Made by a program: the position numbers and the translations under genes
Notes under the pieces: model-generated
What the model saw: only the letters and a program-made list of their open reading frames with translations
Databases searched by the model: none
What the model was told of the DNA's origin: nothing
Part shown: piece after piece, positions 256 to 498 of the stretch
How the letters are laid out: the number at the start of each line of letters is the position of its first letter
Numbering within the stretch: the stretch's first letter is position 1
Virus genome (UHGV): UHGV-1579666
Source: a virus
Length of the DNA stretch: 17,021 nt
Strand: one strand, 5' to 3'

Positions 256-330
256 GGGTCAGTCGTATAAAGGTCATTACGGAAGGCTGTTAACCTTCTT
301 ATCGTGGCTCGATCCCACGCTGTCCCGCCA
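256..330 (+). tRNA. tRNA-like gene, anticodon GUU (Asn) by manual cloverleaf folding; encoded CCA end
   Basis: Acceptor stem GGGTCAG/CTGTCCC (one T-T mismatch), D-loop with GG, perfect anticodon stem GAAGG/CCTTC with loop CTGTTAA, T-arm CGTGG-CTCGATC-CCACG, discriminator G and CCA at 328-330. Deviations: C at position 54, acceptor mismatch at 4-69. Confidence 0.5.
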
Positions 331-335
331 AACAT

Positions 336-411
336 GCTGGTTTAGCTCCAATGGTAGAGCGGTCGCCTTGTAAGCGAATGGGTAGCGGTTCAAGTCCGTT
401 AACCAGCACCA
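336..411 (+). tRNA. tRNA-like gene, anticodon UGU (Thr) by manual cloverleaf folding; encoded CCA end
   Basis: Perfect 7-bp acceptor stem GCTGGTT/AACCAGC, D-stem GCTC/GAGC with GG in the loop, anticodon loop CTTGTAA, T-loop TTCAAGT, CCA at 409-411. Deviations: C at position 14, G-A mismatch at 27-43. Confidence 0.55.
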
Positions 412-498
412 TAACTGAGCCGTAGCCACTGGCTATCATGAATTCATCAGTGATAGTTACGCTGCGGCATTCTACGCATGACCTTCGTGAAAGCGGGT

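Follow-up and report, generated by a model that had tools for sequence, protein, structure and literature searches.

A tandem tRNA-Asn and tRNA-Thr cassette in the late operon of a lambda-like phage: probable nuclease-resistant spare tRNAs

Why should a lambda-like phage carry two tRNA genes between its late-leader terminator and its lysis genes, where lambda itself has none, and why should both depart from the tRNA consensus at conserved positions? The question is raised by UHGV virus genome UHGV-1579666, of which we analysed a stretch of 17,021 nucleotides (hereafter the window), all features being given on its plus strand. In the window ARAGORN calls two tRNA genes and no others, both on that strand: a tRNA-Asn (anticodon GUU, called as gtt) at 256-330 and a tRNA-Thr (anticodon UGU, called as tgt) at 336-411, separated by the spacer AACAT (331-335), which is conserved within the cassette family as AACAT or AATAT. 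Rfam RF00005, with a gathering score of 29 bits, scores the tRNA-Asn at 49.5 bits (E=3.6e-8) and the tRNA-Thr at 61.2 bits (E=2.2e-11), and both align at full length, over model positions 1-71 of 71; covariation supports both genes, as do alignments the Thr gene. The two tandem genes that an initial annotation had proposed at 256-411, and for which it had suggested a check by tRNA-finding software, are confirmed by ARAGORN and Rfam alike. Its further observations can all be read from the sequence: the 5-nt separation, the encoded CCA ends (328-330 and 409-411), the hairpin before and the S gene after the pair, and the deviations at C54 of the Asn and at C14 and the G27-A43 pair of the Thr.

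The tRNA-Asn has the discriminator base G73 and a T-loop of CUCGAUC, hence C54, U59 and C60, together with two additional mismatches, U4.U69 and U13.U22. The tRNA-Thr has G1-C72, C2-G71 and A73; its D-loop contains C14 (CAAUGGUA) and its anticodon stem a G27.A43 mismatch beside U28-A42. Among the near-universal tertiary nucleotides (A14, G18G19, U33, U54-A58 and C56) the departures are C54 in the Asn and C14 in the Thr, all others being present in both; such nucleotides are typical of tRNAs rather than defining, and both genes are still classed as tRNAs. In Escherichia coli, synthetase identity depends on G34, U35, U36 and G73 for Asn, and on G1-C72, C2-G71, G35 and U36 for Thr. Direct reading of the sequence finds every one of these elements, and as read the cassette tRNAs would fit the AsnRS and ThrRS identity rules. 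Unconstrained MFE folding gives no cloverleaf for either tRNA, which is usual for tRNA transcripts and was not counted against them.

The surroundings of the pair are mosaic. The left edge of the window cuts into the late antiterminator gene Q, the 3' end of which (3-164) translates into 53 residues identical, 53 of 53, to the C-terminus of phage 21 Q; its homologue in E. coli H22 is annotated 'antiterminator Q family protein'. The late promoter PR' and qut region, also of phage 21 type, lies at 171-205 (-35 element TTGACA at 171-176) and is placed by homology only, being almost identical to the annotated pQ promoter of phage 21 and to PR'/qut of Sf6; a consensus promoter and terminator scan of positions 1-700 called nothing, the tR' loop exceeding the limit of the scan and the PR' spacer being long. 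That spacer (181-195) contains one base more than in phage 21 (GAGCAAATGAGCAAC versus GAGCAAGT-AGCAAC), as it does in E. coli H22, and the extra base lengthens the -35/-10 spacing in the window. There follows the leader transcript (206-255; the 'aRNA' of phage 21) with its intrinsic terminator tR', made up of a hairpin at 208-246 and a U-tract at 245-251; this is the counterpart of the aRNA feature in AJ237660, a 50-nt terminated leader, and of Sf6 tR'. The leader hairpin folds at -20.2 kcal/mol (z=-6.1), as well as which none of 200 shuffles folded, and the U7AUUU behind it ends at 255, with tRNA-Asn beginning at the very next base.

The part of the window from 409 onward shares 97.5% identity with phage lambda, from S, R and Rz through Nu1 to the tail genes. 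A lambda-type leader (409-653, from megablast and alignment) precedes S, the holin/antiholin and first gene of the lysis cassette (654-977, from the list of open reading frames and the annotation of Sf6, E. coli and lambda). On the right the tRNA cassette is bounded by the 3' end of tRNA-Thr, since the megablast match to lambda starts at 409; at the position of the cassette lambda has an unrelated segment of about 190 nt without a tRNA. Alignment thus bears out the statement in the initial annotation that lambda itself has no tRNA genes, and its view of the pair as accessory cargo carried at this position by some lambdoid phages agrees with what is seen in phage 21, Sf6, HK446 and BTP1. Just before the homology resumes, where the window (395-425) reads AACCAGCACCATAACTGAGCC, lambda (L254, about 1185-1215) reads AACAGCACAACCCAAACTGAGCC, which could be a remnant of a tRNA-Thr 3' end or merely a decaying edge of homology. 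Since Q, PR' and tR' resemble phage 21 and everything from 409 onward resembles lambda, the window is, judged by its sequence, a lambda-like phage or prophage that combines a Q/PR'/tR' module of phage 21 type with a discrete tRNA cassette.

The Asn-Thr pair is a known and annotated lambdoid cassette, and the mechanism of its Thr has been published. The 156-nt pair matches 129 phage records, at about 97% identity in phage 21, Sf6 and BTP1 (97.4% to the pairs of these three) and in many other P22-like and lambda-like phages, in which it is usually annotated as tRNA-Asn and tRNA-Thr; it is also present in 369 of 5,426 complete E. coli genomes, with both genes annotated by PGAP. Two tRNA genes were reported in the phage 21 genome paper, and the phage L paper states that some P22-like phages, Sf6 for example, have Asn and Thr tRNAs at this site. 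We defined the lambdoid late-leader cassette as an Asn gene followed by a Thr gene between the tR' U-tract and the lysis genes, with a spacer of about 5 nt and an identity of 95% or more with the phage 21 pair, and each of these features is found in the window pair, from alignments and from the annotated context in Sf6 and HK446. Because the same pair directly follows a lambda-type tR' in HK446, the cassette is not bound to one type of Q; among approximately 130 IMG/VR and other loci, at least four different terminator types precede tRNA-Asn, which starts 2-5 nt past their U-tracts. Whichever of the two genes served as the anchor of the scan, nearly every locus has Asn(GUU) immediately upstream of Thr(UGU). 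A 16-mer scan of species-representative genomes (596 Gb) was dominated by chance matches, three enterobacterial loci being relevant.

Related loci show considerable variation around this theme. In related prophages (L002, L138, L141, L196, L261, L272 and others) the gap between tR' and the holin gene houses other tRNA arrays, of the types Asn-Phe(GAA)-Thr-Arg(UCU), Asn-Gly(UCC), Ser(GCU)-Thr-Arg(UCU)-Met/Ile(CAU) and Met-Arg-Gly-Thr. In three IMG/VR loci (L270, L271 and L273) the interior of the lambdoid Asn has given way to another Asn(GUU) body: the D, anticodon and T arms are new, whereas the acceptor stem and the place upstream of Thr are the same. In another, L239, the tRNA-Thr that follows tRNA-Asn is a chimera, of phage type through the D-arm and matching E. 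coli thrU exactly in all that follows, anticodon arm to CCA, which implies that the prophage tRNA has recombined there with the host gene. The tRNA-Asn of L259 (IMG/VR) is probably damaged: its anticodon is changed from GTT to GAT (ARAGORN calls it Ile), and its D and T stems contain further substitutions. In Salmonella phage L (L003:1281-1352; the same in the ST160/ST-87 group) tRNA-Asn is followed by a 72-nt tRNA-like sequence, which keeps acceptor and T arms of Thr type while its anticodon arm is shortened and rearranged; it scores 42.1 bits in Rfam, receives no ARAGORN call and is given as tRNA-Leu(UAA) in the record, and it could be either a Thr copy that has decayed or a tRNA-like RNA without a decoding function.

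The function of the Thr gene is best approached through the P2 OLD nuclease. In classical P2-lambda interference the effector is OLD, which kills by cutting host tRNA-Thr(UGU), or ThrU, the sole decoder of ACA, after C28 and C40 in paired CNG motifs of the anticodon stem (Govande et al. 2025, PMC12445682). Phage tRNA-Thr(UGU) rescue OLD-hit cells by substituting for the host tRNA, and that of phage 21 ('tRNA-Thr21') both protects cells and resists purified OLD, the features responsible being a shorter anticodon stem and C28U/G42A (PMC12445682); we equated 'tRNA-Thr21' with the AJ237660 sequence from the text of that paper, which names C28U/G42A and the shorter stem. According to a 2026 preprint (10.64898/2026.07.10.737580), the tRNA-Thr of HK446 provides strong counter-defence against OLD for HK97, HK542 and Bas34, tRNA-Thr alone gives no rescue of lambda, and Gly(UCC) is among the tRNAs depleted by OLD. 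The window Thr equals the phage 21/HK446 Thr except for A26G (75 of 76 positions identical), the G26 form being the second most common natural allele (16 loci). Where host thrU has A27-U43 and C28-G42, the window Thr has the G27.A43 mismatch and U28-A42; positions 28-30 and 40-42 read UCG and CGA, compared with CUG and CAG in the host, and G39 and G41 are present. It therefore displays every sequence feature by which we recognised an OLD-resistant 'rescue' tRNA-Thr, namely a UGU anticodon, a shortened stem and alteration of the paired CNG at 28-30/40-42. The G27.A43 mismatch, first suspected as decay, corresponds in sequence to the published 'shorter anticodon stem' resistance feature, accompanied by C28U/G42A, and by analogy the G26 allele of the window is presumably equivalent to the OLD-resistant A26 allele.

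The best explanation for the locus, and probably the right one, is that the Asn-Thr cassette supplies nuclease-resistant spare tRNAs that are expressed late via Q. Q-dependent transcription is expected because the cassette sits immediately after the late-leader terminator: it would be transcribed only when Q permits RNA polymerase to read through tR', on one transcript with the lysis and virion genes, from which RNase P and 3' trimming would release the tRNAs, CCA addition being unnecessary. Toprim tRNases of abortive infection (P2 OLD and PARIS AriB) cut the anticodon stem of host tRNA-Thr(UGU) and, more slowly, that of tRNA-Asn(GUU); the phage copies, in which anticodon and synthetase identity are kept and the anticodon stems altered, would allow late-protein synthesis to continue. 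For OLD, the literature has shown that the phage 21/HK446 Thr allele, one nucleotide from that of the window, resists the nuclease and rescues both cells and phages, and the cassette tRNAs may be resistant to AriB also. Among the points against this mechanism are that the tRNAs would be made late while OLD is triggered early, by Gam, that tRNA-Thr alone did not rescue lambda itself, and that A26G in the window Thr, which may have an effect, adjoins the OLD cleavage site.

A parallel role may be proposed for the tRNA-Asn. The host substrates of AriB are Lys(UUU), Thr(UGU) and Asn(GUU), which it cuts at U36AAUC|N41, with U39, N41 and U16 of importance (PMC11464382, PMC12409363); tRNA-Lys is its main target and host tRNA-Asn(GUU) a secondary but biologically relevant one, and P2 OLD also cuts host tRNA-Asn(GUU), more slowly (PMC12445682). 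The literature yielded no experiment on a lambdoid tRNA-Asn. The anticodon stem of host asnT has a CNG on both strands (CGG/CCG), whereas the window Asn has it on neither (AAG/CUU). In the AriB context the window Asn and Thr read UAACCU and UAAGCG, against UAAUCC and UAAUCA in the host, and neither has U16; both therefore differ from the host at 39, 41 and 16, the sequence differences by which we judged AriB resistance, although this is a weak test since such differences are likely to arise by chance in any diverged tRNA. To the contrary, Klebsiella-type Asn variants keep a paired CNG (CAG/CUG) and the P1 tRNA-Asn keeps UAAUCA. We found no tRNA-Lys in the window or in any of approximately 160 related arrays, so the cassette alone cannot neutralise B185 PARIS, and we do not class it as a complete anti-PARIS set, which would include a resistant tRNA-Lys(UUU).

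Because host Asn(GUU) is a secondary target of OLD and AriB alike and the phage copy is without both cleavage motifs, the tRNA-Asn would plausibly serve, like the Thr, as a resistant spare. At least three Asn bodies that are unrelated to one another (lambdoid, L270-type and P1/N4-type) furthermore occur in the Asn(GUU)-Thr(UGU) combination, a recurrence that suggests selection for it. We tentatively advance, at somewhat less than even odds, that the pair is a selected two-component 'anti-Toprim-tRNase' cassette, in which Asn is a cleavage-resistant replacement for the secondary OLD/AriB target and which has been assembled repeatedly from unrelated Asn bodies (lambdoid, L270 type and P1/N4/Cyrano). 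If this is true, the lambdoid tR'-S gap would be a dedicated slot for counter-defence tRNAs, among them the Gly(UCC), Arg(UCU), Phe, Ser(GCU) and Met/Ile(CAU) of other arrays.

The initial annotation had left it open whether the unusual bases mark decayed copies or phage-specific variants, and here the family as a whole is informative. Across 20 distinct Asn variants, 6 stem pairs and 20 cells are changed on both sides, a cell count reached by none of 500 shuffles; across 23 distinct Thr variants, including those of P1, N4 and Cyrano, the figures are 8 stem pairs and 21 cells (0 of 500 shuffles), and controls with the register slid give far lower double-change counts than the true register. 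These compensatory changes fall in acceptor, anticodon and T stems, and because of them we conclude that both cloverleaves are under selection in the family. Four of the deviations (C14 and G27.A43 of the Thr; U4.U69 and U13.U22 of the Asn) are conserved throughout the lambdoid family and are features of the lineage rather than signs of erosion; those of the Thr we regard as functional and phage-specific, since G27.A43 and U28-A42 match the published resistance features. Of the two options it is therefore the phage-specific variants that stand, on the covariation, the family-wide C14 and G27.A43 and the published OLD resistance; decay falls as a general account, and survives possibly for the private C54 of the window Asn.

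That one or both genes have travelled with the Q/PR' module as eroding pseudogenes, or more narrowly that only the tRNA-Asn allele of the window is impaired, is decidedly improbable as an account of the locus, and its case is built on this private allele. The T-loop reads CTCGATC (C54, U59 and C60) where the family has TTCGAGT; it occurs in no other variant among approximately 160 loci and the complete E. coli genomes (369 with the pair), and an exact-pattern search for the C54 T-arm in IMG/VR and metagenome contigs found none. The best match to the pair in a complete E. coli genome (98.1%, in E2348/69) differs at exactly these three T-loop bases, which cost 5.8 Rfam bits relative to the phage 21 allele (49.5 against 55.3). 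A nearest-neighbour model predicts that T54C on its own makes a competing D-loop/T-arm helix more stable by 5.4 kcal/mol and lowers the cloverleaf-compatible fraction from 0.18 to 0.003, but the model leaves out tertiary contacts and modifications, and the evaluation for thrU, which includes a non-canonical A52.C62 pair, is not comparable. The C54 allele may on this prediction be weakened and work poorly, and that its T-loop is adaptive rather than damage is the less likely reading. Broken copies do exist elsewhere, in L259 with its GAT anticodon and in the second gene of phage L, without an ARAGORN call. Set against erosion are the compensatory changes in three stems of the family, the experimental demonstration of Thr function in the literature, and the window Asn itself, which still lies 20 bits over the Rfam threshold with its stems and identity elements intact.

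The classical view of phage tRNAs would have the pair add decoders of Asn and of Thr(ACA) codons for highly expressed late genes with non-host codon usage. This role has been suggested for the phage L homologue of the Asn gene, AAC accounting for 24 of the 25 Asn codons of the capsid in that phage, and ACA is read by a single-copy host tRNA; the initial annotation likewise suggested comparing the anticodons with the codon usage of the late genes. That comparison, over 4,730 late-gene codons of the window, lends the idea no support: ACA occurs at 8.0 per 1000 (12% of Thr codons), AAC at 20.3 and AAT at 14.0 per 1000, and in the major capsid gene E AAC is used 10 times and AAT 5 times. These frequencies are near the averages of the E. 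coli genome, and host tRNA-Asn is encoded by four genes. The late genes of lambda, 97.5% identical, are moreover without tRNAs, and over-expressed host tRNA-ThrU gives no rescue from OLD while the phage Thr does, such that supply alone is not decisive there. Codon supplementation may thus bring a small added benefit and is not the best explanation; as the main role of the cassette we consider it unlikely. A structural or processing role, in which the tRNAs offer RNase P/RNase E cleavage points that free the lysis mRNA from the leader, or recombination and boundary sequences for mosaic exchange, accords with the position of the cassette edges at mosaic junctions (on the left at the tR' U-tract, on the right at 409, where lambda homology starts) and with the L239 chimera, which indicates that recombination with host tRNA genes occurs. 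It is nonetheless highly improbable, for it leaves unexplained why the GUU and UGU anticodons, the identity elements and the CCA are strictly conserved, why the Asn body has been swapped for unrelated Asn(GUU) tRNAs, and why Thr gives a rescue that depends on decoding. We also considered evasion of colicin E5 or HepS and rejected it: the phage anticodon loops (CUGUUAA and CUUGUAA) equal the host loops, and loop-cutting nucleases should not be evaded by sequence.

The reading of the cassette as nuclease-resistant spare tRNAs makes it a clear example of phage tRNAs acting as counter-defence rather than as codon supply. It is a feature resembling damage, the mismatch within the anticodon stem, that confers resistance to P2 OLD on the tRNA-Thr, and the lesson for annotation is that deviations of this kind in phage tRNAs should not be read as pseudogenisation.

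Other phages offer several points of comparison. Stx-converting lambdoid phages such as 933W have the tRNA genes ileZ-argN-argO between Q/PR' and the downstream late genes; these are Ile and Arg isoacceptors, traditionally explained by rare codons, and are not homologous to the Asn-Thr pair. P1 (L004:1425-1578), N4 (L005:1337-1586) and Cyrano (L007:2473-2625) have Asn(GUU) directly upstream of Thr(UGU) on one strand, with a Thr 76-83% identical to that of the window and an unrelated Asn body (53-61%); the P1 pair lies in the C1-controlled early ban operon, unlike the late operon of the window, and its Asn retains U39-C40-A41. The tRNA-Lys/Thr/Asn set of phage T5, which neutralises PARIS AriB (PMC11464382, PMC12409363), shares with the window Thr(UGU) and Asn(GUU) and the substitutions at 39, 41 and 16, although the lambdoid arrays have no tRNA-Lys, their sequences are only 55-60% identical to the T5 tRNAs, and the likeness in respect of AriB would be one of sequence. 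The phage tRNA-Thr that counters OLD (PMC12445682; 10.64898/2026.07.10.737580) shares the UGU anticodon, the 27.43 mismatch and the loss of the paired CNG (U28-A42); it was measured as the A26 allele on plasmids, whereas the window has the G26 allele in its native late operon. Closest of all are the pairs of phage 21, HK446 and Sf6, identical to one another, which have the same place (after tR' and before the lysis genes), order and 5-nt spacing as the window. Relative to phage 21, the window Thr is identical at 75 of 76 positions, with G26, a common natural allele, in place of A26, and the Asn at 72 of 75, with its private C54, U59 and C60; the likeness extends to the Q C-terminus, PR' and tR', while the remainder of the window is lambda-like (97.5%) and not phage 21-like.
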